A stretch of 64,000 nt of DNA from Patescibacteria group bacterium (GCA_019454415.1 JACFOI010000003.1:14361-78360), one strand, 5' to 3'. Shown: positions 5,968-64,000, counted from the stretch's first letter. A program made the numbers and translations. Notes: generated from the letters alone by a model not told the origin.

Positions 5968-6046
5968 ACGCGTAGTATATTGTACCAATTCCTCGAGAAG
6001 AGTCAAATTAAAGATATCTTGAACCTTCCGCACAAACTGCCATTAC

Positions 6047-7469: not shown

Positions 7470-7508
7470 CTAACTACGACTCATAGTGTGAGCGATTGTA
7501 CCTGCTAC

Positions 7509-10546: not shown

Positions 10547-10554
10547 GGGGAATC

Positions 10555-31591: not shown

Positions 31592-31603
31592 AATAGGTAT
31601 CGT

Positions 31604-45786: not shown

Positions 45787-47347
45787 CATTCACTGCTCCA
45801 AGCTTCTCAGTCTGCCAGTACTGGGCAACCTACTTTATCGGATGCAGCTTCTGATGGTGAAAGCAGGTCTCTCCACACAGTATTGGATCTCCCGAAAGGA
45901 TGTTCCCCTGCGCGGACAGCTTCTGACCGAGATCGAAAAACGGGCAGTGATCATGTTTTGTTCGGCGTGGCAGCTCGGTCGCCAATTGGAAAATTTACAT
46001 GGAAAGTATGTCTTTGATTACACAGGACCTCATCCCAAACACTTGTCTCTGACTGAGCTTTATAACCTGGAATGGGCGTTAATTCTGGCCCAAAGCGTTA
46101 CTTCCCAGAGCATCAAGAAACTGGGAAACCTTCTCCCCCAAAGCTATCCTTTTTGGAGGCCGTATATTCTTTCAGTCCATCAGCAGCTGGACGTTCAGTG
46201 TGACTTTGTCCAACAGACCCTCAATGAACTTTTAGCCCAGGGTAATACAGTCATTCTGTTTAGCCATGTTCAACAGCCTGATACAGTGAAACAAGAACTT
46301 CGTAAGCATCGTCGTCTGATCTATTTCTCGAGTGTCTGTCCGTTGCGTACCTCTCTCTTGCCATTTCGACTGCAGAAGGATGTCCAGTCAGTGTGGGAGA
46401 GTATTGTTCGTCGAACCTTGTATCAGTATGCGCCACCTCAGCATCATCCGGTCTTGTGGTGTTTTGACCCTGATGACGCGAATATCTTACACTTTTGCCC
46501 TCCCCAGACCACGATTATTTTTGATTGTGTTGACTACTACACCAGTACCGACCAAGAGTTAAATAAGAGGGTCACTCGTGATCAACGCCGCTTGATAGAC
46601 GCCGCTGACCTGATGTTTGTGAACTCCAGAACTTTAAAGAAGCTCCACTCTAAACAACGAATGGATAACTTGTTGGTTCCTCAAGGCTTTGACCAACAAA
46701 CTTTTTTTGTGAATAGCAAAGGCAGGCGTTCAAAAACGTCGATTCGTTTCTTCCAGAAACTTAATCGCACCAAAACAAAGTATCGAGCAGTTGTGTCCTT
46801 CGCCGGGGCACTTTCCTATCGAGTCGACTATCCGATGCTCATAGATCTGATCAAACACTGTCCCAAGTATTTGTTTTGTTTACCGGAGACTGAACTTTCT
46901 TGGCCGACTGAAGATCAAGCTGTAGCTTGGCAGCAGCAGCTTCAGCACCTTAGGAAGCTACCGAATGTACTCTGGTTTCCCCGGCTGCAACGCAGTGAAG
47001 TGCGGGCACTTTTGGAAAAAACTACGGTCGGGTTGATCCCTTATGACACTTCCTTTGAGTTAAATCGTTACTGTTTCCCGATGAAGTTCTTCGAGTATCT
47101 GAGCATGGGCTTGCCTGTCCTTTCTACACCTATTCACGAGTTAAAGTACTATCCTCAGTTTGTCTCACTTGGAAAGAATAGTCTCGAACTACGCAAAAAG
47201 TTACACGTTTTAGTAAGAAAGCGAGTGACAAGTCAAACAAAAGAGGCCATGAAACAGTTGTGTTTAGAACACACATGGCAGAAAAAGATTGACGCAATTC
47301 TCTCTGCTATTGATCTCTATCAACGGCGGTACCACCGATTTGTGTAG
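45767..47347 (+). CDS. GT-B glycosyltransferase (GT4-like C-terminal domain), paralog of 49616-50872
   Basis: YCFPMKFFEYLSMGLPVLSTPIHELKY aligns with CCFPMKIMEYFFAQRPVVSTPIPSLLDY in the paralog. Confidence 0.55.
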   Translation: MQRFRYNIHCSKLLSLPVLGNLLYRMQLLMVKAGLSTQYWISRKDVPLRGQLLTEIEKRAVIMFCSAWQLGRQLENLHGKYVFDYTGPHPKHLSLTELYNLEWALILAQSVTSQSIKKLGNLLPQSYPFWRPYILSVHQQLDVQCDFVQQTLNELLAQGNTVILFSHVQQPDTVKQELRKHRRLIYFSSVCPLRTSLLPFRLQKDVQSVWESIVRRTLYQYAPPQHHPVLWCFDPDDANILHFCPPQTTIIFDCVDYYTSTDQELNKRVTRDQRRLIDAADLMFVNSRTLKKLHSKQRMDNLLVPQGFDQQTFFVNSKGRRSKTSIRFFQKLNRTKTKYRAVVSFAGALSYRVDYPMLIDLIKHCPKYLFCLPETELSWPTEDQAVAWQQQLQHLRKLPNVLWFPRLQRSEVRALLEKTTVGLIPYDTSFELNRYCFPMKFFEYLSMGLPVLSTPIHELKYYPQFVSLGKNSLELRKKLHVLVRKRVTSQTKEAMKQLCLEHTWQKKIDAILSAIDLYQRRYHRFV

Positions 47348-49616
47348 CATATTGAGAGAGTTCCATAGCCGACTGTGGGTCTCTTTCTTGATAAAGCTGG
47401 GCTTGTCGGGAGAGCTGTTCCGCGAGTGGACCCTTCAGCTTGTAATTGAATGCATACTCCGGACCCATCTTTTCTTCCCATGCCAGGATAACCTTGCTAT
47501 ATGCAATCAAAACCTGGGCTTCTTGTTTTGTAGTTGAGGAGCTTTCCTGCCAGGAGGTAAGAATAAGCTCAGCGACTTCCCAGTCATACTCACCCATTCT
47601 TAGGATGTTATTCATCAACTGCTCAGCAATTTCCGGTTGTCCTTGAGCAAGTGCTTGCTGTAGTTGGAGAGATTCACCTGCATACAACGGCCGGGCATAT
47701 CGAAACACAAAATCAGTATCGAGTATGTTAAGCAGGGGGAGAGTTTCAGAAATGGGAAGTTGCGCTATCTGCTCTAGGACAGGTAAAGAAGGATATAGAA
47801 ACTGCTCGGGCTGGAGCGTATAGCTTAGCTCATAGAAATGTAGCGCTTGAATGGGGTTCTTATCCAGTAGTTGATTGGCCTTCTCTATTCCCAAAGCTGC
47901 AATGACACCATTTTCCGGATAAGAGTAGTTATCCAATAAGTTCCGGTTACTTCTTTCGATCCATGTTGTGAGCGCTTGCTCGGCCAGGTCGTTATCCTCC
48001 CCTTTCAGAGCAGCATCCACGTACTGGAAGTATCGGAGCTGATTATGGGGATCAAGCGGAATAGCAGTTTGTAGGTACTTTGCCTTTTGCGTGGAAGGAA
48101 TATTAGCTGCTTGCGCCGCGGAGTCCCAAATCCGCGGATGGTGTCCATATAAAGTGAATAGGAAGTTTTGTGTTGAAGTAGAGATAAGCTCCGGCTGGGA
48201 TAAACTGTTCTCTACCCGCCAGTATGCAAAAGGGAAAAGGGAGAGTGCTGTATCGTACTGTTTCTTTTGCCAGAAAAACACTGACGTCAGATAAAGTCCG
48301 GCCCAAAGCAGAGTACCTACTGCCAGCGTCGCAAAGTAAACCTTCACTCCCATGCCGGAAGCAGGAAGGAAGAATTGTGTGTGCTTGCGAGTAATCCAGG
48401 TACGAAACCGACGGACAAAAGCTCCCAAACTGCTTTCTTGCTTGACCTCACTGATCCAGCAAGCGGTGACAATCAAGAAAAGTAACCAAAGGCCTATCAA
48501 ATGCAGACTAAAGTTGAAAAAAGACTCCAGAATTACTGCCAATACAGCAAGGGCAAAACAGAACGACAGCCTCTGGTGTGGGAATCGCAGTTGATAGAGT
48601 CCCTTCCGAATGATCCAGAAGAAAAAAACCAAGAAGAGCAGCCCTCCCAACAGTCCGTACTCAGTGAATGCTTGGAGGAGCTCATTGTGAGCGTAACCAG
48701 AATACAGTCCCTCTCTGCTTTGGAGTCGAAGAGAAACTAAAGAGAACGTTCCGCCACCCCATCCAGTCAGCGGACGCTGGATCAAAGCTTGGAGAGCCTG
48801 TCTCCAGTACTCAGGTCTCAGTTCCTGATGAAGAGGTTTACAAAGCTGCGCTTGAAAAACCGGGTACGGACAGTCACCACTAGTCGTCATCACTAACGAC
48901 CAAGCAAGAGAGACAGCAAGTAATACTCCGAAAGAAAGAAAAAGTAACCCTGCCCCTAACTTCTTCAACTTTTTATCGGCAGTGGTAAACCACAGCACTC
49001 CTACCTCGGTAACTCCCAAGACAATACCCAAGCGGGCAAAGGTCAGTAACAAGCTGCCAAATACAAAGACTATTCCCAGCCGAGCAAGCCAGCTTTTCTT
49101 CTCTTCTGCTGTCCACCAGAGCAAAGGTAAGGCTAGTAAGAATAACACTGCTGCCTGGTTGTGGCCGTACATCGCTGTCAATAGCGTGGTACTGGGAAGA
49201 TATGATGAAAGCTGAGGAACTGCTGTATAGAGGAAAGTCAGCGCACCGAGGCACACAGCCAAGGTACTAACACCTAGGGCCATGGCTGACGTAGTCAACC
49301 ACCTTGGGTTTCTGAGAAGCGTAAAGACGAACACCAGATAAGAGAGCGCATAGAAGATAGCAGCGTTGACTGTTAAAGGGATGCTTATTGTGGTCAAGAG
49401 TGACAGGAATGTGATCCCGACCAAAGCTCCGAACAGGTAGATCGGTAAAATAAACTGTGAGACTCTTTCAAACTTAACTTCCCGAATAAAAAATAGCTCT
49501 AACAGCGCCAATAATCCAAAAAGTGGAATGCCAAGTGTTGTTTCCCCAAAAATTAAGAGCAAGAACAGCAAACAAAAAAAAATCAAAAAGTAGATGGCTT
49601 GCGAGCCTGAATACAT
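47307..49616 (-). CDS. Wzy_C (O-antigen ligase/PglL-like) membrane protein fused to C-terminal TPR-like domain (paralog of 31604-33832)
   Basis: Signature YAHNELLQAFTEYGLLGG. C-terminal roughly 330 aa helical repeats. Confidence 0.75.
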   Translation of the reverse strand: MYSGSQAIYFLIFFCLLFLLLIFGETTLGIPLFGLLALLELFFIREVKFERVSQFILPIYLFGALVGITFLSLLTTISIPLTVNAAIFYALSYLVFVFTLLRNPRWLTTSAMALGVSTLAVCLGALTFLYTAVPQLSSYLPSTTLLTAMYGHNQAAVLFLLALPLLWWTAEEKKSWLARLGIVFVFGSLLLTFARLGIVLGVTEVGVLWFTTADKKLKKLGAGLLFLSFGVLLAVSLAWSLVMTTSGDCPYPVFQAQLCKPLHQELRPEYWRQALQALIQRPLTGWGGGTFSLVSLRLQSREGLYSGYAHNELLQAFTEYGLLGGLLFLVFFFWIIRKGLYQLRFPHQRLSFCFALAVLAVILESFFNFSLHLIGLWLLFLIVTACWISEVKQESSLGAFVRRFRTWITRKHTQFFLPASGMGVKVYFATLAVGTLLWAGLYLTSVFFWQKKQYDTALSLFPFAYWRVENSLSQPELISTSTQNFLFTLYGHHPRIWDSAAQAANIPSTQKAKYLQTAIPLDPHNQLRYFQYVDAALKGEDNDLAEQALTTWIERSNRNLLDNYSYPENGVIAALGIEKANQLLDKNPIQALHFYELSYTLQPEQFLYPSLPVLEQIAQLPISETLPLLNILDTDFVFRYARPLYAGESLQLQQALAQGQPEIAEQLMNNILRMGEYDWEVAELILTSWQESSSTTKQEAQVLIAYSKVILAWEEKMGPEYAFNYKLKGPLAEQLSRQAQLYQERDPQSAMELSQYATQIGGTAVDRDQ

Positions 49617-50872
49617 CAGGTAGATGGTATCATCTCGCTGAGATACTCATCAACGGAATCCAGCTTGCGCTTCCATGTTTGATTGAGGGCTATGTTCCGA
49701 AGCTTTTGTTGTTGATCTTTCGACCATTTTACTTGGAGGGCCTTTTGAATAGCCCTGGAAAACTGTCGAGATGTATTACCAAAGAAAACAAACTCTTTAT
49801 AGTCTAGTAAGGAAGGGATGGGCGTTGAGACTACTGGTCTTTGTGCAAAAAAGTACTCCATGATCTTCATCGGGAAGCAGCACACATTAAACTCCCACTG
49901 TAAGTCATAAGGAACGATCAAGACATCGCATTCTTTCATCATCGGAAGCAGCTGATTTCTTTTCAGTAATTGAATCCAAGTCACATTTGTTTTTCTCAGT
50001 AGGTGATCAAGTTTTTTTTCGCTGGCCTCACTCTGGCCTACCGATTGATCTTTTCCTCTAGGCCCCACAAATAAAAAATTCCACTCAGGATGCTGCTGCG
50101 TGACTCGCAGTAACATCTCTACATCCAAACGTTGGTTCACACCGCCGAAAAAGCCGATCAACGGACGTGTTTCTTTTCGTAGTTTTTGCAACTTCCTCCG
50201 AACTGCCAAAGGAGGCTGGGTGGGGGTTTTGAATCCCTGGAGATCAAAGCCCTGAGGGACTTGCCGCGGAGCGATCTGTGCAAGTGGCTCTATCCGCGAC
50301 AAAACGGGCCGCGTCAGAACTGTAATGCTACGGGCAGCTTGGATTAACAGCCGCCGCTGCTGGTCAAGCTTCTGCCTTGATTGAACATCCATTGTCGTAT
50401 GCCAATCCACACAGTCAAAGTGGAGATGCCAGCTTTTAAAGAAAGGCAATACGTCAATATCCTGGGGATGAAAAATCCATAGTATCCGCTGAGCGTCTGG
50501 TTGTTGCCTCCCGATAAGTAAGGAAAAGAGCAAAAGATTAAGCTGAAGATTAAGATATTTAGAAAATGAGAACCTTTGGAAAGGCAAAAACTGGAATACA
50601 CCTAAATAGATTGGCTGTCTGAGAGCCTTTAGTTGATCTGCAGTTCGGAGCGGAAGGAAACTTCGCGCTTGTGTAACTCCATTTAACCAATGCTTCCATC
50701 CGGTTTTTCCTCGCCAGCTTTCCCCAAGAGCCAGTATAATGACCACATTTTGAGCAGCTAGCTCGCCTGCTGTTCGAAAAACAAAGTCGCAAATGCCTTC
50801 CGGGCGATCATACGTCGGAATACAAACTAACTTATGGCTCAAAAATCGTCGGTGTTGCAAGCTACTTTTCAT
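49616..50872 (-). CDS. GT-B glycosyltransferase paralog
   Basis: See 45767-47347. Shares 1 nt with the upstream gene. Confidence 0.55.
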   Translation of the reverse strand: MKSSLQHRRFLSHKLVCIPTYDRPEGICDFVFRTAGELAAQNVVIILALGESWRGKTGWKHWLNGVTQARSFLPLRTADQLKALRQPIYLGVFQFLPFQRFSFSKYLNLQLNLLLFSLLIGRQQPDAQRILWIFHPQDIDVLPFFKSWHLHFDCVDWHTTMDVQSRQKLDQQRRLLIQAARSITVLTRPVLSRIEPLAQIAPRQVPQGFDLQGFKTPTQPPLAVRRKLQKLRKETRPLIGFFGGVNQRLDVEMLLRVTQQHPEWNFLFVGPRGKDQSVGQSEASEKKLDHLLRKTNVTWIQLLKRNQLLPMMKECDVLIVPYDLQWEFNVCCFPMKIMEYFFAQRPVVSTPIPSLLDYKEFVFFGNTSRQFSRAIQKALQVKWSKDQQQKLRNIALNQTWKRKLDSVDEYLSEMIPST

Positions 50873-52387
50873 TCCCTTCTCACTCGATGGCAGCTCAACA
50901 AACTATATCACCTCATCACTGATAATTCGTACCAGTCGGTACCGTGGGTGACGCTGCTTTTTTGCGTACTGAGCGCCGTCTTACCCAGTAACAAGCTGTT
51001 CTTTGTTGTGGCAACACTCTATTTTTTGGCGTTGGTTTACATTACCCGTTCAATCTATAAAGCACTCTTTTTTGCCTTCATTCCGTTTGGGATGCTGAAC
51101 ATTGGGCAGATCTACATCACGACTGTTATTCCGTTTAATCAGTTGAAAGGGACCACCTACTATGAAGGGCGACAGCTTTATTTTCGGTTCTCTCCCTTTT
51201 TCGTGTTGGGCATAACCTCAGCCGTCCTGCTGATGTTAGAAATCATTCGGCGAAAGGGTCAACATATCTTTACGATTCCTCACTTGTTTGTGCTAGGCAG
51301 TGTTCTGTTTAGCCTTGTATCTGTTTTTCATACTGAGCAACAGCCACTCTTCTCACTAGCGACTGTACTCGGGACAGTTGGCTCGATTTGTTGGATCCTA
51401 CTTGCCCAGCTTCTGCTGAAAGATTCTCGTTTTCTGGAACAAACAAAGATTCTGAAGACATTTTTACTCGTTCTGATCCTGATGACGTCGCTCCAAACCG
51501 GCGTCGCACTCGCTCAATACGTTAAACGGTCGACCCTCAATCTACGTATCGAACAGTCAACTATCATTCCCACCTTCGGCCAAGGTGCTGACGAAGATGC
51601 GACACAGTTCCGACCTATTGGTCTCCAAACACATGCCAATGATCTGGCAAATGACTTACTTATTTTCCTCTTCACAGGTATTTTGCTCCTTGAGTGGCTG
51701 CGTTCCCGGAAACAACATTTCCCCTGGTGGTTTGAACTTTTTTTCATCACTGAGGCAGTGGTCGTGATTGTGCTTACTCAGAGCCGGACTGCTTACCTAG
51801 CTCTTTTGGCGAGTAGTCTGTTTTTCTTTTTTGCTCAGCGACAAAGAAGCCTTGATTTGATCAAGGAGTTGGAGAAACATCTGAGACCGTTTGTTTTTGT
51901 CCTAGTTATTGCCGCGCTACTTTTCGTTCCTCTTGTCTCACGAAGACTTCTTTACTCGCTCAATAGCTTTGGGACCGGTGGCGGCTTTACTACCAGACAA
52001 CAGCTGGAAAAAGAAGCCATCCTCCTTGTCCAAAAAAATATACTGTGGGGCGTAGGACCTGGAATGTTCATCCCTGCTGCCTTCAAAGAAAATCCTCAGG
52101 GCATCATGCGGTACTTTCCGGAAGCTGTGCATAACGGGTACCTGCTCTTTATTTCTGAGCACGGACTCCTGTCATCAATCTGCATACTTCTCTTCTTTTA
52201 CTTTCTACTCAAAGAGTATGAGAAGTACCCTAATACGATGTTGCGAACTGTGATGCACACCGGCTTGATCAGCATCTTAGTGATGATGTTGCTTCATCCT
52301 TTTCAGAACTTTATTACGCTGTTTGTCTTGATTTCCTGGTTGTTGGTGTATATTCAGCAAGGAGCAAAGTATGAACCTAAAAAGTAA
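50834..52387 (+). CDS. Wzy_C-like (O-antigen ligase family) polytopic membrane protein
   Basis: Signature FPEAVHNGYLLFISEHGLLS. About 12 TMs. Confidence 0.65.
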   Translation: MAQKSSVLQATFHSLLTRWQLNKLYHLITDNSYQSVPWVTLLFCVLSAVLPSNKLFFVVATLYFLALVYITRSIYKALFFAFIPFGMLNIGQIYITTVIPFNQLKGTTYYEGRQLYFRFSPFFVLGITSAVLLMLEIIRRKGQHIFTIPHLFVLGSVLFSLVSVFHTEQQPLFSLATVLGTVGSICWILLAQLLLKDSRFLEQTKILKTFLLVLILMTSLQTGVALAQYVKRSTLNLRIEQSTIIPTFGQGADEDATQFRPIGLQTHANDLANDLLIFLFTGILLLEWLRSRKQHFPWWFELFFITEAVVVIVLTQSRTAYLALLASSLFFFFAQRQRSLDLIKELEKHLRPFVFVLVIAALLFVPLVSRRLLYSLNSFGTGGGFTTRQQLEKEAILLVQKNILWGVGPGMFIPAAFKENPQGIMRYFPEAVHNGYLLFISEHGLLSSICILLFFYFLLKEYEKYPNTMLRTVMHTGLISILVMMLLHPFQNFITLFVLISWLLVYIQQGAKYEPKK

Positions 52388-53252
52388 GCCGCTGCAGACT
52401 ATTTGGAAAAGAGTGCGTTCCCTCGGTTGGATTGACCTTATCGGCGTATGTATTTTTCTGGGCATACTGAGTGTCGCTTTCTTTTTCTTTTTACGAAAAG
52501 CCGACTATGCGTACATCACTCTTCGTGTCTCCCAATCCGATAACATGAATCCCTACAGTGATCAGGCACCTGTTTGGTTTATTGAAAAGATTCAGCCCGG
52601 CTTAAAAGAGACTGACGGCCTGGGCAGGGACAACGTCGTGATTGAAAAAGTTCATCGTTTCAAATCTTCTGACTTGAATCAGGATTTTTACGTCGACCTC
52701 AAAGTCAGATCTGTCTACAACTCCAGAACTAAACAGTTTACCTACAATGGATCCACCTTGCTGATCGGCAGCTACCAGTCTTTTAAACTTCAGGGAATTC
52801 AGCTTTCCGGAGTGATCGTCGATGTTCGCGAGCAAGATACACCGCGTGAAGAAAAAACCTTCCTGGTGGAAGGGTACGTGAATCCGGCCTACAACGACGA
52901 ACAGTATAGTGTGGCCAACACAGTGGTGGACGGTATCAAGAACTATCTGGCCGACACATTGTTTACCGGTCTCAAGACAGTCGACGTAGATGGTCAGGCC
53001 ACCGCCGAGATTATTAGTATTCAAAAGCGTCCAGCTAGACGTCAGTTTGTTTCCGGATCGTCCTTTGTGAGCGTTCCCGATCCTGAGAGACAACGAGTTG
53101 AGATGACTTTAAGAATCAAGGGGGTCAAAATTAATGATGCCTATTACTACAAGAACGAAGCACCCATTGTCGTAAACTCAACGATCTATTTGACGTTCCC
53201 TCAAAGTAATATCAACTTTACCCTTACTCATTTTGAGGAAGAAAAAAAGTAG
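52371..53252 (+). CDS. N-terminally anchored uncharacterized protein (paralog of 42699-43511)
   Basis: Same architecture and alignable blocks (YITLRV/YITIRF, SRTKQFTY/TRTKLYSA). Confidence 0.45.
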   Translation: MNLKSKPLQTIWKRVRSLGWIDLIGVCIFLGILSVAFFFFLRKADYAYITLRVSQSDNMNPYSDQAPVWFIEKIQPGLKETDGLGRDNVVIEKVHRFKSSDLNQDFYVDLKVRSVYNSRTKQFTYNGSTLLIGSYQSFKLQGIQLSGVIVDVREQDTPREEKTFLVEGYVNPAYNDEQYSVANTVVDGIKNYLADTLFTGLKTVDVDGQATAEIISIQKRPARRQFVSGSSFVSVPDPERQRVEMTLRIKGVKINDAYYYKNEAPIVVNSTIYLTFPQSNINFTLTHFEEEKK

Positions 53253-53267
53253 AAAAATATTTCTTTC

Positions 53268-54881
53268 TCACTGTGATGAAGAAGGTTCTGTGCTTACGTC
53301 GTTGCTGCATAACCAGCTAGAACTGGCATCATTCTCTGTTTCTTTGCGACAGCAGTGTTCAATGTTTCTCTCTCCATTCTGGTAGTAGCTGGAGACCGTG
53401 TAAGCTGTTTGATTCTTTAGAAAAATTATCTTCTTCTGCTGGAGGCTGGAACATGAGATCAAAGGGCGCGCAACCAGTTCAGACTCAAACTGAGCTGACT
53501 CATTCGAGCGACTCATGATAGCAGGCAGCTCGTCCAGATTATTGGTATTCAGGAGTGTCAGCCAGGACCACGACGGTAAAAGAATGATATTGCTGCTCTC
53601 CAACGTTTCCCCAACCTCCACTTGCTCCTTTTTCAAAAACTCAATTTTTTGAGCCTCTTTTCTTTGAAGGTTGATTGTAGTCTTCCAAATTTCGACATAC
53701 GAGCGGACCCAGAAAACAGACGTCAACCCGAGGAGTAATCCTACAGAAACTTTGAACACAGGTAAAGCTCGTTCTCGTATCTTTCTGTTGATTACCTCAG
53801 CACTGGTGCAAAAAAACATCACCAAAATCGGGGTAAATAAGCGAGGCAGAAATAGAGAAAGCCTTGGAAGGAACTGATAAAAGAAGAAACGCTGTGAGAG
53901 AAAAGGCATCACAAGTGAGATCGATACAATTAGCAGGCAGGGCAACACTACCAGCGCTCCCAAGTCAAAAGAACTTGTCCAGAATAGTGGCTTCTTCTTC
54001 TTTTGGAAAATCAAAACCAGACTGGCTGCTATTGCCAAATAGAACAGCACTGTTGCCAGTGACAGGGACACCGGCCCTAAAAAGTAGTTCGTTTCAAAAC
54101 CAAGTAAAGTGAAGAATAGACTTGGAATGTTGAAGAAGCCGGGAATCGGAATCCAGGATGCTTCTTCAAACTGGCGTTTCACTGAAAAACCAGCCAAGAG
54201 AAAAAACTCCCCCAGACTCAGGATACTGAGTGCTATTGCCGGCCAGTGTCTAAAAGTTTTCTCTTTTAGGTCATCTGCTACTAGCCAAGCGACCACCCCC
54301 AACGTCAAAAAGAAAAATGCATAGGAGATCGCGTTCCCCAGCAAGAGGAGCGCGATCACCATCAGCAGATATTTTTTTGATCGATCTTGCTGAAAGCTTT
54401 TGAGTGCAATGTAGGTCAACGATGCTATTAAACACACTAGACCATACATACGGAGATGAATGCCCGTGAATACAAAAAATGGATCAAGGAACAGCGTGAC
54501 TGCTAAAAAGAGAACGGCAGACGTGGCCCACTGTTGCTTTCTCACCCACCACAGCACACACACACCGCCCAGAAGTTGTGGTAACACGCTCAATAGCAAT
54601 CGGAGAACAAACAGATTGCTGGTGAAAACCAGCAGACCCTTTAAGAAAATATACGAGAGTCCGGGATGAACATCTCTATTCTGAATCAGAAGCTCGAATG
54701 GAGTTCTGCTCCAGGAGAAAAGAAGCGAGAACTGTTCGTCCAACCACAAGGGATAGTGGGCGGTCAAAGTTATTCTGATGAAGAAGCCCAAGCCTATGAT
54801 CAGACACAGAAAAAAAGTGACGAGTTTATGTGACATATGTTGAGAAAAGCGAAACCAACTGGTGTGTAACTTGATCGTCAC
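53268..54881 (-). CDS. GT-C fold membrane glycosyltransferase (PMT_2/ArnT-like), second copy
   Basis: AHYPLWLDEQFSLLFSW DE motif in the first loop. More than 10 TMs. Confidence 0.55.
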   Translation of the reverse strand: MTIKLHTSWFRFSQHMSHKLVTFFLCLIIGLGFFIRITLTAHYPLWLDEQFSLLFSWSRTPFELLIQNRDVHPGLSYIFLKGLLVFTSNLFVLRLLLSVLPQLLGGVCVLWWVRKQQWATSAVLFLAVTLFLDPFFVFTGIHLRMYGLVCLIASLTYIALKSFQQDRSKKYLLMVIALLLLGNAISYAFFFLTLGVVAWLVADDLKEKTFRHWPAIALSILSLGEFFLLAGFSVKRQFEEASWIPIPGFFNIPSLFFTLLGFETNYFLGPVSLSLATVLFYLAIAASLVLIFQKKKKPLFWTSSFDLGALVVLPCLLIVSISLVMPFLSQRFFFYQFLPRLSLFLPRLFTPILVMFFCTSAEVINRKIRERALPVFKVSVGLLLGLTSVFWVRSYVEIWKTTINLQRKEAQKIEFLKKEQVEVGETLESSNIILLPSWSWLTLLNTNNLDELPAIMSRSNESAQFESELVARPLISCSSLQQKKIIFLKNQTAYTVSSYYQNGERNIEHCCRKETENDASSSWLCSNDVSTEPSSSQ

Positions 54882-56971: not shown

Positions 56972-57736
56972 TCATGCCTTGGTATTGCGCACTTGGGTAA
57001 AAAAGATTCTCAGTAAGAAAAGCGGCGTAATAACTAAATATCGCTGCCAGAGACGGCGGGGCTCATTGATCAAACGGAACAGCCACTCTAATCCGTTTCG
57101 TTGCATCCATCTGGGCGCCTGGTTGACAGTCCCAGCCAGGAACGGAATCGCTGCTCCAACGCACCAATAGGTAATCGGCATTTTTAATGTATCCCGCAGA
57201 TACGTTCCTAGTAGTACTTGATTCGGTGAACCAATTCCGATCCAGACAAACTTCGGGACAAAGCCTTTGATCAGCTTGCCGAGTCGTTTCCGTTCCTCGG
57301 GATCTGTGCTATCCCCAACTAAGATCAGTTGGGCTGTTTTTTGTTTAATTTTTTGGTGAAATTTTTTGGCAAGCTCTTCATAGACCGTTAGATTCGGGCA
57401 AAGGATAGTGTACTTTGCGTTGGGATAGCGATCTAAAGTAGCAGCCAGGATATCCGGACCATACACCCGTTCTACTTGTTGTTTGACCTTACCTCGGAAC
57501 CACCAGACCAGCGGCATTCCGTCTGTCGTCAAAAAATCTACCTTCTGGTAGGTACTGGCAATCGTGGGATCGTTATCGACTCTAGCTAAGTCGTAGAGGG
57601 TACACGGCAATACCACCTGCCCTCGGGGGGACTTATTATTCCATAGCTCATCCATGACCATATTGAAGGGACCAACAATGAAACACAGATTGACAGTTCC
57701 ACAGCTGAGACTAAGCCGAAGAGGTAGTGAGTTCAT
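56972..57736 (-). CDS. GT26 WecG/TagA/CpsF-family glycosyltransferase (N-acetylmannosaminyl/linkage-unit transferase type)
   Basis: FLTTDGMPLVWW, TYWCVGAAIPFLAG, WLFRLINEPRRLWQRY. Confidence 0.75.
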   Translation of the reverse strand: MNSLPLRLSLSCGTVNLCFIVGPFNMVMDELWNNKSPRGQVVLPCTLYDLARVDNDPTIASTYQKVDFLTTDGMPLVWWFRGKVKQQVERVYGPDILAATLDRYPNAKYTILCPNLTVYEELAKKFHQKIKQKTAQLILVGDSTDPEERKRLGKLIKGFVPKFVWIGIGSPNQVLLGTYLRDTLKMPITYWCVGAAIPFLAGTVNQAPRWMQRNGLEWLFRLINEPRRLWQRYLVITPLFLLRIFFTQVRNTKA

Positions 57737-58470
57737 GATAAACGTAGCTCTACATTGTTCTTAAAAGCCCGGCCTGCTACACACTCTGGATACTGCCATA
57801 TCCCATTCTGAAAAAGCAATGGCACTTGAGAGTTATATACAGTAACGGCTTCTATTTTATCTGGTGAAGACCATGAAAGCGACGTAGGTGAAGTTACCAC
57901 TTGCCAAAACTGAGGCCACCGCCAGTTACTCAGTTGAAGTGCATAAGGGATATCAACGTAATACAGCAAACGTTCTGTGGGAACATATTTTTCAAGGATA
58001 CGTCGAACTAAAAGATGATCTGCATGCTGTCCTACTCCGAGCGGACAAACAACTACCGCCTCTGTTTTGACTTCCTGCTGGAGCCTAAGCTCCAGTTGAG
58101 ACTGCCAGGAGGCTGAATCCTTAATCGTTCCGGCAAATAACTCTTGGTGAGTCTGATAAGTAGGAGTAGAGTCCTGTTCACGGAAGCCAGCGTCGACCAG
58201 ATTCAGCCACTTATAACTAGCCACTCCTAACTTTCCCATGCTTTCTCTATCTTCTTGTCCACGTACCTTTTCAAACTCTGTTACCGACTCTACATGGCCT
58301 TTTTTCATGAACTCAATAGAGTCCTTTGAGAGGTGCTCTGCTCCGAACCTCGTAAAAACGGTTATGACTTCTACTTTCATACCCTTTTTTGCCCAAGCCA
58401 GAATATGCTCCCCGCAGGATAAGCTGGCATCATCGAAGTGGGGTGAAAAGACTTGAATGTTTACACTCAT
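57733..58470 (-). CDS. PIG-L/LmbE-family N-acetylglucosaminyl deacetylase
   Basis: VFSPHFDDASLSCGEHI (HxDD motif). Confidence 0.7.
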   Translation of the reverse strand: MSVNIQVFSPHFDDASLSCGEHILAWAKKGMKVEVITVFTRFGAEHLSKDSIEFMKKGHVESVTEFEKVRGQEDRESMGKLGVASYKWLNLVDAGFREQDSTPTYQTHQELFAGTIKDSASWQSQLELRLQQEVKTEAVVVCPLGVGQHADHLLVRRILEKYVPTERLLYYVDIPYALQLSNWRWPQFWQVVTSPTSLSWSSPDKIEAVTVYNSQVPLLFQNGIWQYPECVAGRAFKNNVELRLS

Positions 58471-59567
58471 TTTTCTGCCTGATCAATAAGGTGATGTGTC
58501 ATGATGTAATCATAGAGGATCTGGGCAAAGAAACGGTTTGCAGCTGCAGAGGGATGCTCTTCTCTCTTGCTGACTGTGTAGTTAACTCGAAGCTCTTCAC
58601 CGCTATCCGGCTGATCCGCTAAGACATTTTTTCCTGTTTTTTTCAACTCATTCACGTACTCGGAAAGTGCCGAAGTCTGCCAAAAGAAGCTATCAAAAGC
58701 AATATAGACAGCACGCTGCGTGGGTAATTTAGACAAAACTGTCTGGAACATACAGTAGTTCTTGGTATTTGGGTTAGTAAACGTTTCATCTACACGTTGG
58801 TGAAGATCATACGCTTGCGCATCAACCGGGTTTTTATCGTTGTATGGAAAGTCATAGATGGCTCTGATTTGGTCACAGCCATGTTCTATTTGAGCGTACG
58901 CATCTGGGTCATACCGATCGGCATTATTGAAGAGCAAGTCATTGTCCACGATCCCAAAAATAAAAAGATCCACATCCGGATGCTGTTCTAAAATAATTTG
59001 ATACTTCAGATAATTATCAAATATATTATCGCCGGCCATACCATACGAAAGAATCTTAACTTTACTTTCCCCTCCGAGCATCTTTTCGAGTACATGGGTG
59101 AACCGGTCGTTTTCCCTGAGGCCTTGCCCCCACACATAGGAGTCACCGATAACTGCAATCGTAAAGCGATGCGGTGTCGAGGTACCGAGGACTGTCGGCT
59201 GTCTTCCTTCTTTTTTATCTTGAATAAATTGGTGAAGCTGAATCATCTCCGCCGCTCTTTTGCCAAAGGCCTCATACTTCCGACCAGGCGAAAAGTAACC
59301 ATGAGCAGCAGAACGCTGGTAAAAGAAAAGATCAAAGTAGTAACGCTCGGCAACCTGATAGCAAACAACCACTGAAAGAGCCATGGAAAGTACGACCAGT
59401 CCCACACGAAAAAGTGGAGTCTGCCAACGATGAGACTCTATAGTTTTTATTGAGCTTTCCTGAATCACAAAAGCATGTAAATAAATGCACTTACCGGAGA
59501 AGCAGTTGTAAAGGTGACCAGGATGCCGAAGATGACAATCACGATCACTGGTGGAATAAGCCACCAC
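58467..59567 (-). CDS. SGNH/GDSL-family hydrolase paralog
   Basis: GDSYVWGQG. Alignable with 41728-42690 over the full length. Start uncertain. Confidence 0.6.
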   Translation of the reverse strand: MVAYSTSDRDCHLRHPGHLYNCFSGKCIYLHAFVIQESSIKTIESHRWQTPLFRVGLVVLSMALSVVVCYQVAERYYFDLFFYQRSAAHGYFSPGRKYEAFGKRAAEMIQLHQFIQDKKEGRQPTVLGTSTPHRFTIAVIGDSYVWGQGLRENDRFTHVLEKMLGGESKVKILSYGMAGDNIFDNYLKYQIILEQHPDVDLFIFGIVDNDLLFNNADRYDPDAYAQIEHGCDQIRAIYDFPYNDKNPVDAQAYDLHQRVDETFTNPNTKNYCMFQTVLSKLPTQRAVYIAFDSFFWQTSALSEYVNELKKTGKNVLADQPDSGEELRVNYTVSKREEHPSAAANRFFAQILYDYIMTHHLIDQAEK

Positions 59568-59600
59568 TTTTTGTTCTTCATTAAAAATTGGAACAGCTCT

Positions 59601-61442
59601 TTATACATGCTTCCTCCGTGATCTAGTTGTCTTTACTTTTTTCGATAAAACTCTTTTTCTTTTTTTCCTGATGACAAATTGATCAAGTACTAAAACGTCA
59701 ATGTCAGTATGCAGAAAACAGTTGATCGCATCTCTTGGAGTACAGACAATCGGCTCTCCTCGAATATTAAATGATGTATTAATAATAACTGGTACACCAG
59801 TTTTTTTCCTATACTCATCGATCAAATCATAGTATAGCGGATTATCATCTCGATGGAGAGTCTGGAGACGACCAGTTCCGTCCACGTGCACCACCGCGGG
59901 GACGTCTCGTTCTCCAATCTTAGGTTTGAATGGATAAACCATCAGCATGTACCGAGCGGACTTTGGTAATTGTCGGTCAGACTTAAAGTAGGTTGAGGTG
60001 TACTTCTCTAAAATGACTGGAGCAAATGGCCGGAAGAGCTCTCGATGCTTAACTTTTTCATTAATGATATCGCGCATCTCTACTGTGGCAGCCGAAGCCA
60101 GAATGCTCCGAGAACCCAGCGCACGTGGTCCCCACTCCATTCTGCCTTGGAACCAGCCGATGATCTGCTGGTCGGCGACCATCTTGGCAATATCTTTGGC
60201 TAATGTGCGTTTACTCTTTACAAACTCATACTTTAAACCAGCCTCCTTGAGCGCGGTTTGAATCTCGTACCAGCTGAAGGAAGGTCCCAAGAAAGGGGTG
60301 AACTCTTCCGAAAATTTCTTATGCAGCTGAGCTGAGGCTTTTTCGTTTAGCCGGGGCAGACCGAGCTCCTCCGGATGAAAGCGAAGGTACAGAGCAGCTC
60401 CCATGGCGCCGCCAGCATCACCTGGATCCGGCGGGATAAAAAGCTTTTTGTATGGAGTTGAGCGCAACAGTTTGCCGTTCATGACCGAGTTCAGCGCGAC
60501 ACCACCGGCTAGACAGAGGTGTGGAGTGCGGTGGTGTTTGTACTCAGCATTCAGGATATGGAAAACAATCTCTTCAAGTTTGGCCTGAAGGGATGCCGCA
60601 ATGTTCTCGTAGTGTCGCTCCATCGGACTTTCCGGTTTGCGAGTGGGGTAGCCCAACAACTTCTCAAGCTTCTCTGAGTACATGTGATCCGACCAGTCGA
60701 AGTCAAAGTATTCCATGTTGAGCGAAAAGCTTCCGTCAGGATGCAAGGTTATGAGCTGATCAAGCTTGTCCTTAAAAGGCTCAGGGTCACCATAGGCGGC
60801 AAGTCCCATCACTTTATACTCTGCGTCGTTCACCGAAAAACCCAGATACGCAGTCATCGTGCTGTACAACAGCCCGAGTGAGTGAGGAAACTTTATCTCC
60901 CGATCAATCGTCAGTTTTTTTCCTTTTCCATAGCCGACCGTGGTCGTTGCCCACTCTCCTACTCCATCTAAAGTCATAACTGTTGCTTCAGGGAAGCCGG
61001 ACAGATAGTAGGCGCTTGCTGCATGGGCTAGGTGGTGTTCAAGATAAAAGACTTTTCCGTAGTAGTTCAGTTCATCTTTCAGAACTTCTGAGATCTTCAA
61101 TTTGATGTTTAGCCAAGAGCCAAAACTGTTTTGATACACCCCGTAACTTTTGGGGAAGTGCTGAAGATGTTGGTGGATCACCCGATCAAACTTAATGATC
61201 GGCTTCTCATAAAAAACGATTGCATCAAGCTCATTAGCTGCCAGCTTTCCTTCATTTAGGCAGTACAAGATTGCTTGCTTCGGAAAGTTGTTATCATGTT
61301 TTTTTCGAGTAAAACGCTCTTCAGCTGCAGCAGCCACGATGGTGTCATCGACTATTAAACACGCAGCCGCATCGTGATAGTAACAAGAGATTCCTAAAAT
61401 TTTCATACGTTCCCACTCGCTAGTACATTGCTTTAATGTCAA
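59601..61442 (-). CDS. NodU/CmcH-family carbamoyltransferase
   Basis: MKILGISCYYHDAAACLIVDD N-terminus (Kae1/HypF-like fold), 613 aa. Confidence 0.85.
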   Translation of the reverse strand: MTLKQCTSEWERMKILGISCYYHDAAACLIVDDTIVAAAAEERFTRKKHDNNFPKQAILYCLNEGKLAANELDAIVFYEKPIIKFDRVIHQHLQHFPKSYGVYQNSFGSWLNIKLKISEVLKDELNYYGKVFYLEHHLAHAASAYYLSGFPEATVMTLDGVGEWATTTVGYGKGKKLTIDREIKFPHSLGLLYSTMTAYLGFSVNDAEYKVMGLAAYGDPEPFKDKLDQLITLHPDGSFSLNMEYFDFDWSDHMYSEKLEKLLGYPTRKPESPMERHYENIAASLQAKLEEIVFHILNAEYKHHRTPHLCLAGGVALNSVMNGKLLRSTPYKKLFIPPDPGDAGGAMGAALYLRFHPEELGLPRLNEKASAQLHKKFSEEFTPFLGPSFSWYEIQTALKEAGLKYEFVKSKRTLAKDIAKMVADQQIIGWFQGRMEWGPRALGSRSILASAATVEMRDIINEKVKHRELFRPFAPVILEKYTSTYFKSDRQLPKSARYMLMVYPFKPKIGERDVPAVVHVDGTGRLQTLHRDDNPLYYDLIDEYRKKTGVPVIINTSFNIRGEPIVCTPRDAINCFLHTDIDVLVLDQFVIRKKRKRVLSKKVKTTRSRRKHV

Positions 61443-61647
61443 TAGGTCGGCCGTGTTTTTCCCAAGTTGAAGTCACTCCCTTCTTTTCAAGAAACTCTAC
61501 GCCCATTAACTTTGCAAAGATGGAAGTCAGTCCGAACCCCAACAGATAGATAGCTTGGAGAAAGATCCAGGTAAAGACTCGCTGTTGGAGAAGACGTATT
61601 TTTTGAAAAAAGGAAATGATTTGATTCCACATATGATTTTTTATCCC

Positions 61648-62757
61648 TTAATATGCCCTATTTTGCCACATTTTGTGGGCGTCTTCCCATCTCCTCGTAG
61701 CCTTGGCGCGAACGTCTGGTGGTATAAACTGCGTTGAGAGCTTTGCAGGAACTCGCCAGCTATTCGCCCAGATGAAACCATAACTGAAAACCGGGTCCGT
61801 TTTACGTAACCTTACCTCCTGGAATCGTATCTCGCCAGCCTGAATTTGTTTACTGAGCTCTTCGTTATCAAAGAAAATTGGCTGCTTCTTTCCTTGGAAA
61901 GCATTCCTAACCATCTTTCTGGGTGCGGGAAAAATTCCCCACTCTCGTTCAACAAATAGGTGCTCCTGGAGTCCAGAGACGAACAGGACTCCGTTATTTT
62001 TGAGGAGCTCTGGGCTGGAGGCCTGCTGCAACACCGGAACCGGGGCCTGCAAACTTTGCAAGGTATCGATCAGCGTTATGACGTCTAAGCTGTGCGGTCG
62101 TACCAGACGCAAAAAATGCGCATCGGCACAGATACGGATGACGTTTTCCCCAGAATAGAATGCCTTGGACAGAAAAAGATTACTAAAGTTCGAGTCCAGC
62201 GAGATGATCTTTAACTTCGGATACGCCTGCTGCATCTCAGTAAAGTTGTTGACTATCCCGGAACCGACATCTAACCAGAGGATCTTTCGCTGACGCTGAG
62301 GTCGCACCAGCAAGGCTGCTAGCGGAAAGTGAATCGCCAATGCATCCTGCCACTCATCGCGGGTAAAGTAGTATTTCACCAGATGTTTTGGCAGGAAGAG
62401 TGATAGAAGCCTTGCGCACTGCACCTTGCCGATCTTTTGGAGAAAATCGGTTGAAAGGAATCGGGAGAGTAAAGGTTTACTCCGTTTTATCCATATCTGC
62501 TCGGGATGAAACTTTCTTCTCTGGGTCAAACCTAAAAGAACAGCCGCCGTGAAATCTTTCTGCCGGAGATAATCAAGAATTTGCCGATTTAACGGCTTAA
62601 AGAGATACAGGATCCCTTCAATAATAGGGAACTCATCACAGTTACAGACGAGCGAGCCGAAAACGATCTGCTGGCCGTGTTTTTTCCAGATTGCACCGAT
62701 TTTGAAATGTTCATAACAGAGTGGGCACTGAAGAAGCTTGACGTCACTAAGTAGCAT
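61648..62757 (-). CDS. SAM-dependent methyltransferase with N-terminal Trm112-like zinc-ribbon-type domain
   Basis: LLQCPLCYEH...CNCDEFPIIEGILYL then LDVGSGIVNN motif I. Confidence 0.55.
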   Translation of the reverse strand: MLLSDVKLLQCPLCYEHFKIGAIWKKHGQQIVFGSLVCNCDEFPIIEGILYLFKPLNRQILDYLRQKDFTAAVLLGLTQRRKFHPEQIWIKRSKPLLSRFLSTDFLQKIGKVQCARLLSLFLPKHLVKYYFTRDEWQDALAIHFPLAALLVRPQRQRKILWLDVGSGIVNNFTEMQQAYPKLKIISLDSNFSNLFLSKAFYSGENVIRICADAHFLRLVRPHSLDVITLIDTLQSLQAPVPVLQQASSPELLKNNGVLFVSGLQEHLFVEREWGIFPAPRKMVRNAFQGKKQPIFFDNEELSKQIQAGEIRFQEVRLRKTDPVFSYGFIWANSWRVPAKLSTQFIPPDVRAKATRRWEDAHKMWQNRAY

Positions 62758-63718
62758 GGTCGTTGTACCACTGCGCTGTTCTTTGCAGACCGTCCTCCAA
62801 AGTAATAACCGGCTGCCAACCAGTCTTGCGTGTCAGGCGTGAAGAATCAAGCCACGACCGTCGCTGTTCCGTAAGGGAACGATCCTGATAAGTAATGTTT
62901 AGTTTTTTCTTAGCAAGAGAAGCACACAGCTCTGCAAGCTTGTGTGTAGTAGTAGGAATGCCGGTACCTACGACAAAAACGCCGGTGCATCCATGTTCTG
63001 CTACTGCTACATTTGCGGCCACCACGTCATCGACATAGATATAGTCGCGTTCATGTGTGCCGTCTCCGTAGATAACAAGTGGCTGACCCTCACTGAGGAG
63101 ACTCATAAACCTTGCAACCACCCCCGCTTCACCGTCCAAAGACTGCCTGGGTCCGTAGACATTCGCATAGCGCAAGCTGGCTACCTTTACTCCGGATTGT
63201 TGACTGTACCAATTCCAATACAACTCAGCAGCATACTTCGCGGCTCCATAGGGTGAGACTACGGCGATCTCCGAACCTTGGTGGTACGGAGGATTCTCTA
63301 ACCCACCGAAAACAGCCGAAGAAGAAGAGAAAACTATCTGAGTAGGGTTATAGCGATCAGTATCCGAGAGTTTGAGACAAGCTTGGATGAGGCTGAGTGT
63401 GCCACCAATGTTACTTTGGGCATCTTCCAGTGGTCGCTTGAGGGCAGCTCTGAGTTGAGAATGTCCCGCCAAATGGTAAATAGTTTTAGGCTGATGAGTA
63501 GAGATAATTTTGATTAATTGATCATTTTTATTCAGATCCATTTCATAAAACTCAACACCCGAAGGAAGGTTCGCCTTCTGCCCACTACTTAAGTCATCAA
63601 TCACGATGACTTTCTTCCCTCGTTTGACCCAATACTCTGTGAGATGGGAGCCGATGAAACCGGCTCCACCGGTAACCAAAACAGAAGCTGTGATATGTTT
63701 CCCGCTCATTACTTCCAA
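62747..63718 (-). CDS. NAD-dependent sugar epimerase/dehydratase (GalE/SDR-extended family)
   Basis: VLVTGGAGFIGSHL Rossmann motif. YxxxK region. Confidence 0.8.
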   Translation of the reverse strand: MEVMSGKHITASVLVTGGAGFIGSHLTEYWVKRGKKVIVIDDLSSGQKANLPSGVEFYEMDLNKNDQLIKIISTHQPKTIYHLAGHSQLRAALKRPLEDAQSNIGGTLSLIQACLKLSDTDRYNPTQIVFSSSSAVFGGLENPPYHQGSEIAVVSPYGAAKYAAELYWNWYSQQSGVKVASLRYANVYGPRQSLDGEAGVVARFMSLLSEGQPLVIYGDGTHERDYIYVDDVVAANVAVAEHGCTGVFVVGTGIPTTTHKLAELCASLAKKKLNITYQDRSLTEQRRSWLDSSRLTRKTGWQPVITLEDGLQRTAQWYNDHAT

Positions 63719-64000
63719 GTCTTTCTGTAGGCGGCTACGACTTCCTTGCCACCGTCCAGTTTAACTTTCCCTTTCTCTAACCACACAAAGCGTTGATAGT
63801 GGGGCTCAATAAAACTCATCACGTGACTGACAGTGATGATGGTCTTATTCTGGTGAAAGAACTCCTCAATACGGTTAAAGCATTTCTTCTGAAAGTTGGC
63901 ATCACCTGTGGCGATCATTTCATCAAGCACCAGAATGTCCGGATCTGCGTGGACAGCCACGGAAAATCCGAGTCTGAGCTTCATTCCCTCTGAGTAAGTA
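63709..64000 (-). CDS. ABC transporter ATP-binding protein (Wzt/TagH-type polysaccharide exporter), 5'-truncated by window edge
   Basis: Walker B ILVLDE and H-loop VSH in the C-terminal 91 aa. The N-terminal part lies beyond 64000. Confidence 0.65.
   Translation of the reverse strand, partial: TYSEGMKLRLGFSVAVHADPDILVLDEMIATGDANFQKKCFNRIEEFFHQNKTIITVSHVMSFIEPHYQRFVWLEKGKVKLDGGKEVVAAYRKTWK

Follow-up and report, generated by a model that had tools for sequence, protein, structure and literature searches.

A carbamoyltransferase cassette of the SxtIJK(L) type joined to an LmbE deacetylase and a GT26 glycosyltransferase in a predicted surface-glycan operon of a Patescibacteria group bacterium

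Class III carbamoyltransferases make carbamoyl-AMP from carbamoyl phosphate and ATP and then transfer the carbamoyl group at a metal site (PMC9633730). In saxitoxin clusters the gene of one such enzyme, the O-carbamoyltransferase gene sxtI, adjoins sxtJ, sxtK (165 bp) and sxtL, the last encoding a GDSL lipase and predicted decarbamoylase (PMC2679770, PMC2684587, PMC7073992), and SxtJ and SxtK are still treated as unknown partners of SxtI (bioRxiv 10.64898/2026.06.11.731795). Enzymes of glycosyltransferase (GT) family 26 work on polyprenyl-diphosphate-linked acceptors at the membrane (PMC6493773), and in streptococcal rhamnopolysaccharide the enzyme PplD de-N-acetylates the N-acetylglucosamine (GlcNAc) of the linkage unit (PMC8807736). 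Here we analyzed a 64,000-nucleotide stretch of DNA from a Patescibacteria group bacterium (GCA_019454415.1, JACFOI010000003.1:14361-78360; hereafter the window), in which genes for a GT26 glycosyltransferase, an LmbE/PIG-L deacetylase, an SGNH protein and a carbamoyltransferase (CarbT) occupy positions 56972-61442. A sequence-only reading of the window had taken them for possible makers of a decorated TagA/WecG-type wall-polymer linkage unit. The interpretation that we favor on balance, from the genes and their order, is a different one: these genes would form the distal part of an operon of about 12 genes whose products assemble and tailor a surface glycan and export it through an ABC-transporter-dependent pathway, with membrane-associated O-carbamoylation and, in addition, N-deacetylation.

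Gene starts were re-derived from the gene calls on three contigs with identical sequence (L081-L083) and verified against the window DNA. Starting from the last gene and going upstream, the operon comprises within the window:

56972..57736, minus strand: GT26 glycosyltransferase of the WecG/TagA/CpsF family, 254 aa, last gene of the operon (PF03808, TIGR00696)
57733..58470, minus strand: LmbE/PIG-L zinc-dependent N-deacetylase, 245 aa, without transmembrane (TM) helix (PF02585)
58467..59468, minus strand: SGNH/GDSL-fold protein, probably membrane-anchored, 333 aa, GTG start at 59468
59465..59608, minus strand: DUF5989 protein, 47 aa, single TM helix (PF19451 on the identical gene call)
59601..61406, minus strand: CarbT, 601 aa, ATG start at 61406 (Pfam and PDB matches)
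61420..61632, minus strand: SxtJ-like protein, 70 aa, single TM helix, between the methyltransferase and CarbT (gene call on L081-L083)
61648..62757, minus strand: class I S-adenosylmethionine-dependent methyltransferase, 369 aa, with an N-terminal Trm112-like zinc ribbon (weak PF08241 and PF13489; NF038101 on the N-terminus)
62747..63709, minus strand: NAD-dependent sugar epimerase/dehydratase, GalE/RmlB-like (PF01370, 1.5e-59; under all NCBIfam equivalog cutoffs)
63709..64000, minus strand: 3' part of a Wzt/TagH-like ABC-transporter ATPase, 265 aa, the full gene extending to about 64506 beyond the window (Pfam match on L081-L083)

The genes of the four enzymes first recognized follow one another head to tail on the minus strand, as the sequence-only reading had described them, and their family assignments are supported. 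The outline of the block needed revision on three counts. The starts of CarbT and SGNH had been placed too far upstream: CarbT begins at ATG 61406 (MKILGISCYYHD, a start shared by its UBA924 orthologue) instead of TTG 61442, and SGNH begins at GTG 59468 and not at 59567. The SxtJ-like and DUF5989 genes had been missed. Finally, the block continues past 61442 through the methyltransferase, the epimerase and the ABC ATPase and, outside the window, an ABC-2 permease, a phosphoribosyltransferase (PRTase) and the UDP-galactopyranose mutase gene glf. The complete order is glf, PRTase, ABC-2 permease, ABC ATPase, epimerase, methyltransferase, SxtJ-like, CarbT, DUF5989, SGNH, LmbE, GT26. From the ABC ATPase through GT26, neighboring genes overlap by 1-11 nt or stand 13-15 nt apart; DUF5989 overlaps the end of CarbT by 8 nt and the start of SGNH by 4 nt, and start/stop overlaps of 4 nt run from DUF5989 through GT26, that of LmbE and GT26 included. 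Promoter- and terminator-like motifs do not exceed those of shuffled sequence (9 versus 10.3±3.2 and 10 versus 7.5±2.9), and every minus-strand terminator-like match is intragenic. Translation of the genes is coupled, and because the junctions are tight or overlapping and such motifs are not in excess, the block is likely to be co-transcribed; the strong internal terminators or promoters that would have spoken against the sequence-only reading left no sign.

By its sequence CarbT is an ATP- and carbamoyl-phosphate-dependent class III carbamoyltransferase of the TobZ/NodU/CmcH/GdmN/SxtI type. Both domains are full-length, the Kae1-like domain at the N-terminus (PF02543, 271.7 bits, 1e-80) and the YrdC-like domain at the C-terminus (PF16861, 233.2 bits, 2e-69), and the protein aligns end to end (E-values from 1e-82 to 7e-92) with TobZ, GdmN, NovN and 7XB6, an unnamed carbamoyltransferase that is the best PDB match and on whose structure our literature search found no papers. 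In an alignment numbered after NovN and GdmN, the iron ligands H133, H137, D156 and D333 of GdmN correspond to H124, H128, D147 and D330 of CarbT (601-aa numbering), and the GdmN general base H27 corresponds to H11 (roles in GdmN from PMC9633730). Every column conserved in at least 97% of 76 relatives is kept in CarbT, the metal ligands and H11 included. The KxR/SxN tetrad of the YrdC/TsaC fold is found as K453-H-R455 and T544-S545-F-N547 and is invariant in the family; T544 was matched by motif position, and not by structural superposition, to Thr529 of TobZ, which hydrogen-bonds carbamoyl phosphate (PMC10321239). The string GPRALG(x)RS, a cited signature of SxtI (bioRxiv 10.64898/2026.06.11.731795), occurs in CarbT as well. 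The carbamoyl-phosphate-binding and Kae1-like residues to which the sequence-only reading had pointed are thus present and not degenerate.

CarbT therefore shares with TobZ, GdmN, NovN, NodU and CmcH the pairing of Kae1-like and YrdC-like domains, the metal ligands, the general-base His and the KxR/T-SxN site. It scores, however, only 158 bits against the 1000-bit cutoff of the NodU equivalog, an identity too low for transfer of the substrate, and it lacks the dimerization domain of GdmN and has a basic C-terminal tail. Moreover, TobZ, GdmN and NovN are not reported to need small membrane proteins, whereas the clade of CarbT almost always has two. In one relative, L087, CarbT (5915-7674) is called as two pieces of 476 aa and 109 aa, the result of a frameshift or pseudogene or of an assembly error.

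Direct Pfam and NCBIfam scans of the 70-aa open reading frame (ORF) upstream of CarbT gave nothing significant, and profile-profile comparison was needed to place it: it matches the C-terminal half of the long SxtJ forms with an hhalign probability of 93.8% (E 1.8e-7), and 7 of 9 long forms match PF19588 (SxtJ). Only this half of the domain is present in the window ORF, and likewise in the short forms from Patescibacteria and DPANN archaea. In DPANN the SxtJ protein is split over two adjacent ORFs, which are fused in L037. The other small protein reads MYKELFQFLMKNKKWWLIPP... in the window, and members of its family match PF19451 at 1e-23 to 3e-26; a literature search found no papers on DUF5989. 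It is 85-94% identical to orthologues whose CarbT is only 77-81% identical, with 18-23 synonymous and 3-7 non-synonymous codon changes. Since the synonymous changes far exceed the non-synonymous ones, DUF5989 is a genuine gene under strong purifying selection. Both mini-proteins consist of a basic or amphipathic N-terminus followed by one TM helix.

We picked 80 CarbT loci by similarity to the window CarbT, a census that covers this clade and not carbamoyltransferases at large. The cassette genes were counted with hidden Markov models in the 56 of them that have 1.5 kb or more on both sides of CarbT and that come from Patescibacteria, DPANN archaea, delta-proteobacterial lineages, Aquificales and Bacteroidetes: an SxtJ-like gene was found directly upstream of CarbT in 52, DUF5989 in 50 and SGNH in 35, with all three present in 32 loci and none in 2. 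The SxtJ-like and DUF5989 genes are thus near-obligate (about 90%) companions of this CarbT clade across bacteria and archaea. When the neighbors were clustered over all 80 loci, membrane-anchored SGNH proteins were the commonest and small membrane proteins came next; epimerases, GT2, GT4, Bac_transf, DegT, an ABC-2 permease with its ATPase, and heptose genes recurred as well. Because these further neighbors are glycan genes, the usual job of the cassette would seem to be glycan modification. CarbT with SxtJ-like, DUF5989 and SGNH genes is common to Patescibacteria (L001-L007) and DPANN (L008-L033 and others; Woesearchaeota and Nanoarchaeota) at about 50% CarbT identity. This suggests that the whole cassette was transferred across domains between these two small-celled, symbiotic groups.

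Among the closest described systems is sxtI-J-K-L, whose four parts recur in the window, adjacent and co-directional: a class III carbamoyltransferase, an SxtJ-family protein (PF19588), a DUF5989/SxtK-type protein (PF19451) and a GDSL/SGNH protein. The two arrangements differ in several respects. The order is I-J-K-L in the sxt clusters and J-I-K-L here, and the window counterpart of SxtJ is the C-terminal half of the family only. SxtK is equated with DUF5989 by size (162-165 bp; PMC2679770, PMC7073992) and position alone. SxtL (about 426 aa; PMC2679770) is about 90 aa longer than the window SGNH, which is a candidate counterpart by fold and position. The acceptor of SxtI is decarbamoyl-saxitoxin, whereas that of the window CarbT is presumably a sugar. 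No other gene of the saxitoxin pathway (sxtA, G, B etc.) lies near the window cassette, whose host belongs to the candidate phyla radiation (CPR). Since its neighbors are only glycan genes, the cassette would work like the sxt carbamoylation module without being part of a saxitoxin cluster. All component families were already known, as was the composition of the cassette from the saxitoxin clusters, and tailoring enzymes within a polysaccharide locus are ordinary as a gene block. What is new is the cassette in a CPR glycan operon, including two small genes, the counts for this CarbT clade and the lineage-specific joining of the cassette with the LmbE-GT26 pair.

LmbE-family enzymes hydrolyze the N-acetyl group of GlcNAc conjugates. 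The window LmbE scores 52 bits with PF02585 (cutoff 28.2; 1e-13), and its residues H11, D13, D14, H149 and H152 align with H16, D18, D19, H161 and H164 of teicoplanin Orf2*/Dbv21, which we take to be the zinc ligands of the PHxDD and HxDH motifs plus the catalytic Asp. These zinc-site residues are invariant across 18 subfamily members. The PHxDD...HxDH site of the LmbE/PIG-L enzymes (PIG-L, MshB, BshB and Orf2*/Dbv21) is therefore intact in the window protein, which is, however, only distantly related to any characterized member: its best PDB E-value is 8.5e-6, and its subfamily is a small one, of about 18 clusters, specific to Patescibacteria. Scanning metagenomes with the LmbE sequence by itself gave no matches, and an alignment-based scan returned mostly distant LmbE proteins (at most 37% identity) without CarbT or GT26 neighbors. 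With no TM helix the enzyme is predicted to be soluble and cytoplasmic, and PIG-L offers a model for the deacetylation of lipid-linked GlcNAc ahead of further glycosylation.

The SGNH ORF has a single, sub-threshold Pfam match (PF13472 GDSL, 24.8 bits versus a cutoff of 32.9). It has the SGNH fold, with blocks I, II, III and V as G107-D108-S109, G145-D146, N175-D176 and E302-x-H304-P-S (332-aa numbering), all invariant or near-invariant, and a Ser-His-acid triad in which the acidic residue stands at -2 from the His instead of -3. The family has a basic N-terminus, then a TM helix, and two invariant cysteines; the protein is probably membrane-anchored with its catalytic domain extracytoplasmic. 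No MBOAT or AT3 acyl-donor partner was found among the scanned window ORFs, and for this reason the protein more likely removes a group than adds an O-acyl group. A role as O-acyltransferase was considered and dropped as the lead idea, given that no membrane acyl-donor partner was seen and that the nearest relatives do without the gene. Nor can SGNH be essential for carbamoylation, being absent from many loci and from the closest relatives. Several Patescibacteria loci have two or three SGNH paralogues in tandem right after CarbT: L003 (11935-14910), L040 (11720-14925), L041 (11712-14629) and L007 (11822-13770).

These parts can be assembled into a tentative order of steps. GT26, which passes at family level (PF03808, 131.3 bits versus a cutoff of 27.4, 4e-38; TIGR00696, 98.7 bits versus 69), would extend a lipid-linked primer at the cytoplasmic membrane face. 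By analogy with PIG-L acting on GlcNAc-phosphatidylinositol, the cytoplasmic LmbE would strip the N-acetyl group from a GlcNAc-type residue of the lipid-linked intermediate. The YrdC-like domain of CarbT would make carbamoyl-AMP from carbamoyl phosphate and ATP and the Kae1-like domain would pass the carbamoyl group on, most likely to a sugar hydroxyl, while the SxtJ-like and DUF5989 proteins probably dock CarbT at the membrane beside the lipid-linked acceptor. ABC-2/ABC pairs export completed lipid-linked glycans. Outside the cell SGNH, as an optional accessory, might edit ester-type substituents (O-carbamoyl or O-acyl) after export, as an esterase or decarbamoylase. For the methyltransferase, roles as a glycan O- or N-methylase or as a cap enzyme that terminates chains are conceivable. 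Because the genes sit in a locus for surface glycan and share their operon with an ABC exporter, a carbamoylated, N-deacetylated glycan is a reasonable prediction. To that extent, and with the active sites intact, the decorated glycan of the sequence-only reading is plausible; the O-acylation it also thought possible is less likely, as an acyl-donor partner was not found among the scanned window ORFs. A literature search on carbamoylated O-antigens and polysaccharides found nothing directly useful.

The operon lies in a much larger glycan region. Positions 1-28 kb of the window carry housekeeping and envelope genes (TsaD, NrdR, class II ribonucleotide reductase, LepA, SmpB, MurJ, PilN/O), and two class A penicillin-binding proteins and a GH18 protein are also encoded there; peptidoglycan synthases are present in the window. 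Positions 28-64 kb are one very large glycan locus, with a Bac_transf initiating transferase, many GT2 and GT4 proteins (more than 10 glycosyltransferases), methyltransferases, four Wzy_C proteins and DUF4330 proteins. The G+C content is 0.44-0.47 in the glycan locus (28000-64000) and 0.49-0.52 in the housekeeping part (1-28000). A drop of this kind is usual where variable surface polysaccharides are encoded, and it suggests that the evolutionary history or turnover of the locus has been different. Scans for tRNA genes and Rfam families across the window gave no matches. The other features noted in the window are:

8078-10546 and 11883-14375, plus strand: class A penicillin-binding proteins
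10543-11790, plus strand: GH18 (chitinase-like) gene, between the two penicillin-binding proteins and on the same strand
31481-33832, 43508-45064, 47307-49616 and 50834-52387: four Wzy_C (O-antigen polymerase/ligase-type) proteins
35789-38782, plus strand: 997-aa protein with a PQQ/BamB-type beta-propeller, DUF5060 and an apiosidase-like glycoside-hydrolase region, within the glycan locus
40015-41811, plus strand: 598-aa ORF without Pfam match
41728-42690, minus strand: second SGNH gene, 35% identical (E 2e-55) to the CarbT-adjacent one, the motifs AE(K/H)YFFDKFF and GDSYVWG being common to both
53268-54881, minus strand: 537-aa ORF without Pfam match

Two of the four Wzy_C proteins each have a DUF4330-type partner (42699-43511 and 52371-53252; 24% identity, E 6e-12), and a comparable Wzy_C and DUF4330-like pair is found again in L005, L092 and L119. 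The ORF at 53268-54881 is a multi-pass membrane protein whose counterparts in syntenic loci of relatives are 35-38% identical, and it might be a glycan polymerase, a ligase or a GT-C that has gone unrecognized. An NCBI entry named 'PIG-L family deacetylase [Patescibacteria group bacterium]' has the same sequence as the window LmbE, which is found on contigs of up to 277 kb. The nearest genomic relatives of CarbT are metagenome-assembled genomes of Patescibacteria (CPR), with UBA924 the best match at 81% identity; DPANN archaea come next, at about 50%.

Several observations weigh against the favored interpretation. The LmbE-GT26 pair follows the cassette in one Patescibacteria lineage only (L001, L081-87 and L090; LmbE identity 43-100%); it does not in L089 and L091 (51% LmbE identity), and hardly ever in 78 more distant LmbE loci. 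This linkage may reflect shared ancestry and not a shared substrate. The SGNH gene is missing in all non-identical relatives that keep CarbT-DUF5989-LmbE(-GT26), and the second SGNH gene adjoins a DUF4330/Wzy_C pair, so that the subfamily is not exclusive to carbamoylation cassettes and SGNH may have no relation to carbamoyl groups. A profile search with the CarbT-adjacent SGNH family retrieved 338 relatives, none of them named SxtL. No carbamate kinase, ornithine transcarbamylase or carbamoyl-phosphate synthetase was found among the scanned window ORFs, several of which have no Pfam match, a few smaller ORFs having been left out of the scan; CPR genomes are, moreover, metabolically reduced. 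Co-transcription, finally, is judged from gene spacing alone.

An alternative is that the cassette of SxtIJK(L) type and LmbE-GT26 serve different glycans, or different glycan positions, made by this very large multi-Wzy locus, and stand together by a lineage-specific accident of how the locus was assembled. We regard this as unlikely. The association is confined to one clade and is missing from about 78 LmbE loci that are more distant and from about 79 of the 80 CarbT loci, SGNH varies in its presence among close relatives, and four Wzy_C proteins with more than 10 glycosyltransferases suggest more than one product. On the other hand, the start/stop overlaps of 4 nt from DUF5989 through GT26 tie the two groups of genes together, all of which lie on the strand of the ABC exporter, and the CarbT-DUF5989-LmbE-GT26 order persists where LmbE is no more than 43% identical. 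Relatives with 43-81% LmbE identity keep the ABC-Epim-MT-SxtJ'-CarbT-DUF5989-LmbE-GT26 arrangement as a whole, the epimerase (Epim) in L001, L084-87 and L090, and orthologues of the methyltransferase (MT; 44-49% identity) directly upstream of the cassette in L001, L084-86 and L090. For the sequence-only reading, which had taken co-linearity as a sign of a decorated glycan, the consequence is that CarbT and SGNH belong to a separate, widespread cassette; because its juxtaposition with LmbE-GT26 is limited to one lineage, co-linearity is weak evidence for a single sugar.

The target proposed by the sequence-only reading, the linkage unit itself, fares no better. Under this proposal GT26 is a true TagA or WecG that makes N-acetylmannosamine (ManNAc)-GlcNAc-PP-undecaprenol, and the linkage unit is N-deacetylated, carbamoylated (and O-acylated) before the wall polymer is attached to peptidoglycan. 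Residues D72, R90, Q173, R221, R228 and R232 of GT26 align with D65, R83, Q167, R214, R221 and R224 of TagA and are invariant in 4 orthologues; in TagA these are the catalytic base Asp65, Arg83, Gln167 and the Arg residues 214, 221 and 224 of the C-terminal appendage, the last being required for activity and membrane activation (PMC6493773). The proposal also draws on the 4-nt LmbE/GT26 overlap and the keeping of this pair in relatives, on the ABC exporter within the same operon and on the peptidoglycan synthases encoded in the window. PplD gives a precedent for glucosamine in place of GlcNAc at the wall-polymer linkage in an ABC-transporter-dependent pathway (PMC8807736), but it is a CE4 (NodB-type) enzyme and not of the LmbE family, and carbamoylation is not part of its system. 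At the equivalog level GT26 fails by a wide margin (NF041710 TarA, 37.8 bits versus 350; NF002980 WecG, 57.6 bits versus 323). The position of TagA E168 is taken by Val174, a Val that is invariant in the window GT26 and three orthologues, and the donor/acceptor region around T37/N39 of TagA (LPCTLYDL in the window) was left unaligned by HMMER. TagO/WecA, the UDP-GlcNAc 2-epimerase MnaA/WecB and an LCP ligase were not detected in the scanned window ORFs of at least 150 aa or in 4.5 kb beyond the end, and could lie elsewhere in the genome; the only initiating enzyme among the scanned ORFs is the Bac_transf protein (PglC/WbaP-type). The occurrence of the CarbT cassette in dozens of loci lacking GT26 and LmbE speaks against this target as well. 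By sequence, then, the window GT26 is a member of the family but not demonstrably TagA or WecG, and no TagO/WecA, 2-epimerase or LCP was detected among the scanned ORFs; nothing seen there links the chemistry with a ManNAc-GlcNAc linkage unit. The linkage-unit proposal is accordingly improbable.

It is more doubtful still that LmbE exposes a sugar amine that CarbT then turns into a ureido (N-carbamoyl) sugar. It is true that, wherever members of the lineage possess both, LmbE comes directly after the cassette, that carbamoyltransferases as a group act on amino, hydroxyl or thiol groups (PMC9633730), and that TsaD and HypF, which use the same two-domain chemistry, carbamoylate N or S (PMC10321239). 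Against this, the characterized close structural relatives TobZ, GdmN and NovN, and SxtI with them, are all O-carbamoyltransferases (PMC9633730, PMC2679770), the general-base His that deprotonates the hydroxyl is conserved, and the cassette usually comes without a deacetylase. A small-molecule module, aminoglycoside-like or saxitoxin-like, is scarcely credible and was rejected on the grounds of the surrounding genes: the best-characterized homologues are indeed antibiotic or toxin tailoring enzymes (TobZ, GdmN and NovN for CarbT, Dbv21/Orf2* for LmbE) and the composition of the cassette equals sxtIJKL (PMC2679770), but the surroundings are all glycan assembly (GT2, GT4, GT26, Wzy_C, Bac_transf, glf and a Wzm/Wzt-type ABC exporter), no other sxt, aminoglycoside, polyketide synthase or non-ribosomal peptide synthetase genes are present, and the host has a reduced CPR genome.

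A bolder version of the favored reading, an ABC-exported glycan tailored by O-carbamoylation and N-deacetylation, can be put forward as a speculation that we think has a small chance of being right. CarbT, SxtJ-like and DUF5989 proteins would form a dedicated membrane-docked machine for lipid-linked glycans, widespread in CPR, DPANN and other phyla and co-opted by saxitoxin producers. Here it would be coupled to LmbE in such a way that the freed amine or a neighboring hydroxyl is carbamoylated, giving a ureido- or amino/carbamoyl-decorated polymer, and the external SGNH would remove or edit carbamoyl groups.

CPR/Patescibacteria live as epibionts and have tiny genomes, and their surface chemistry presumably governs host attachment and phage exposure, and the present bacterium gives over more than 35 kb of its genome to glycan genes. 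Our analysis predicts for it an ABC-exported glycan that is carbamoylated and in part de-N-acetylated, a need for carbamoyl phosphate in a cell of reduced metabolism, and a functional partnership of CarbT with two mini membrane proteins. SxtJ and SxtK have been without an assigned role since the saxitoxin cluster was described; as their families form a near-obligate trio with the carbamoyltransferase in glycan loci across phyla, simpler systems that make no toxin could serve to work out what the two do.

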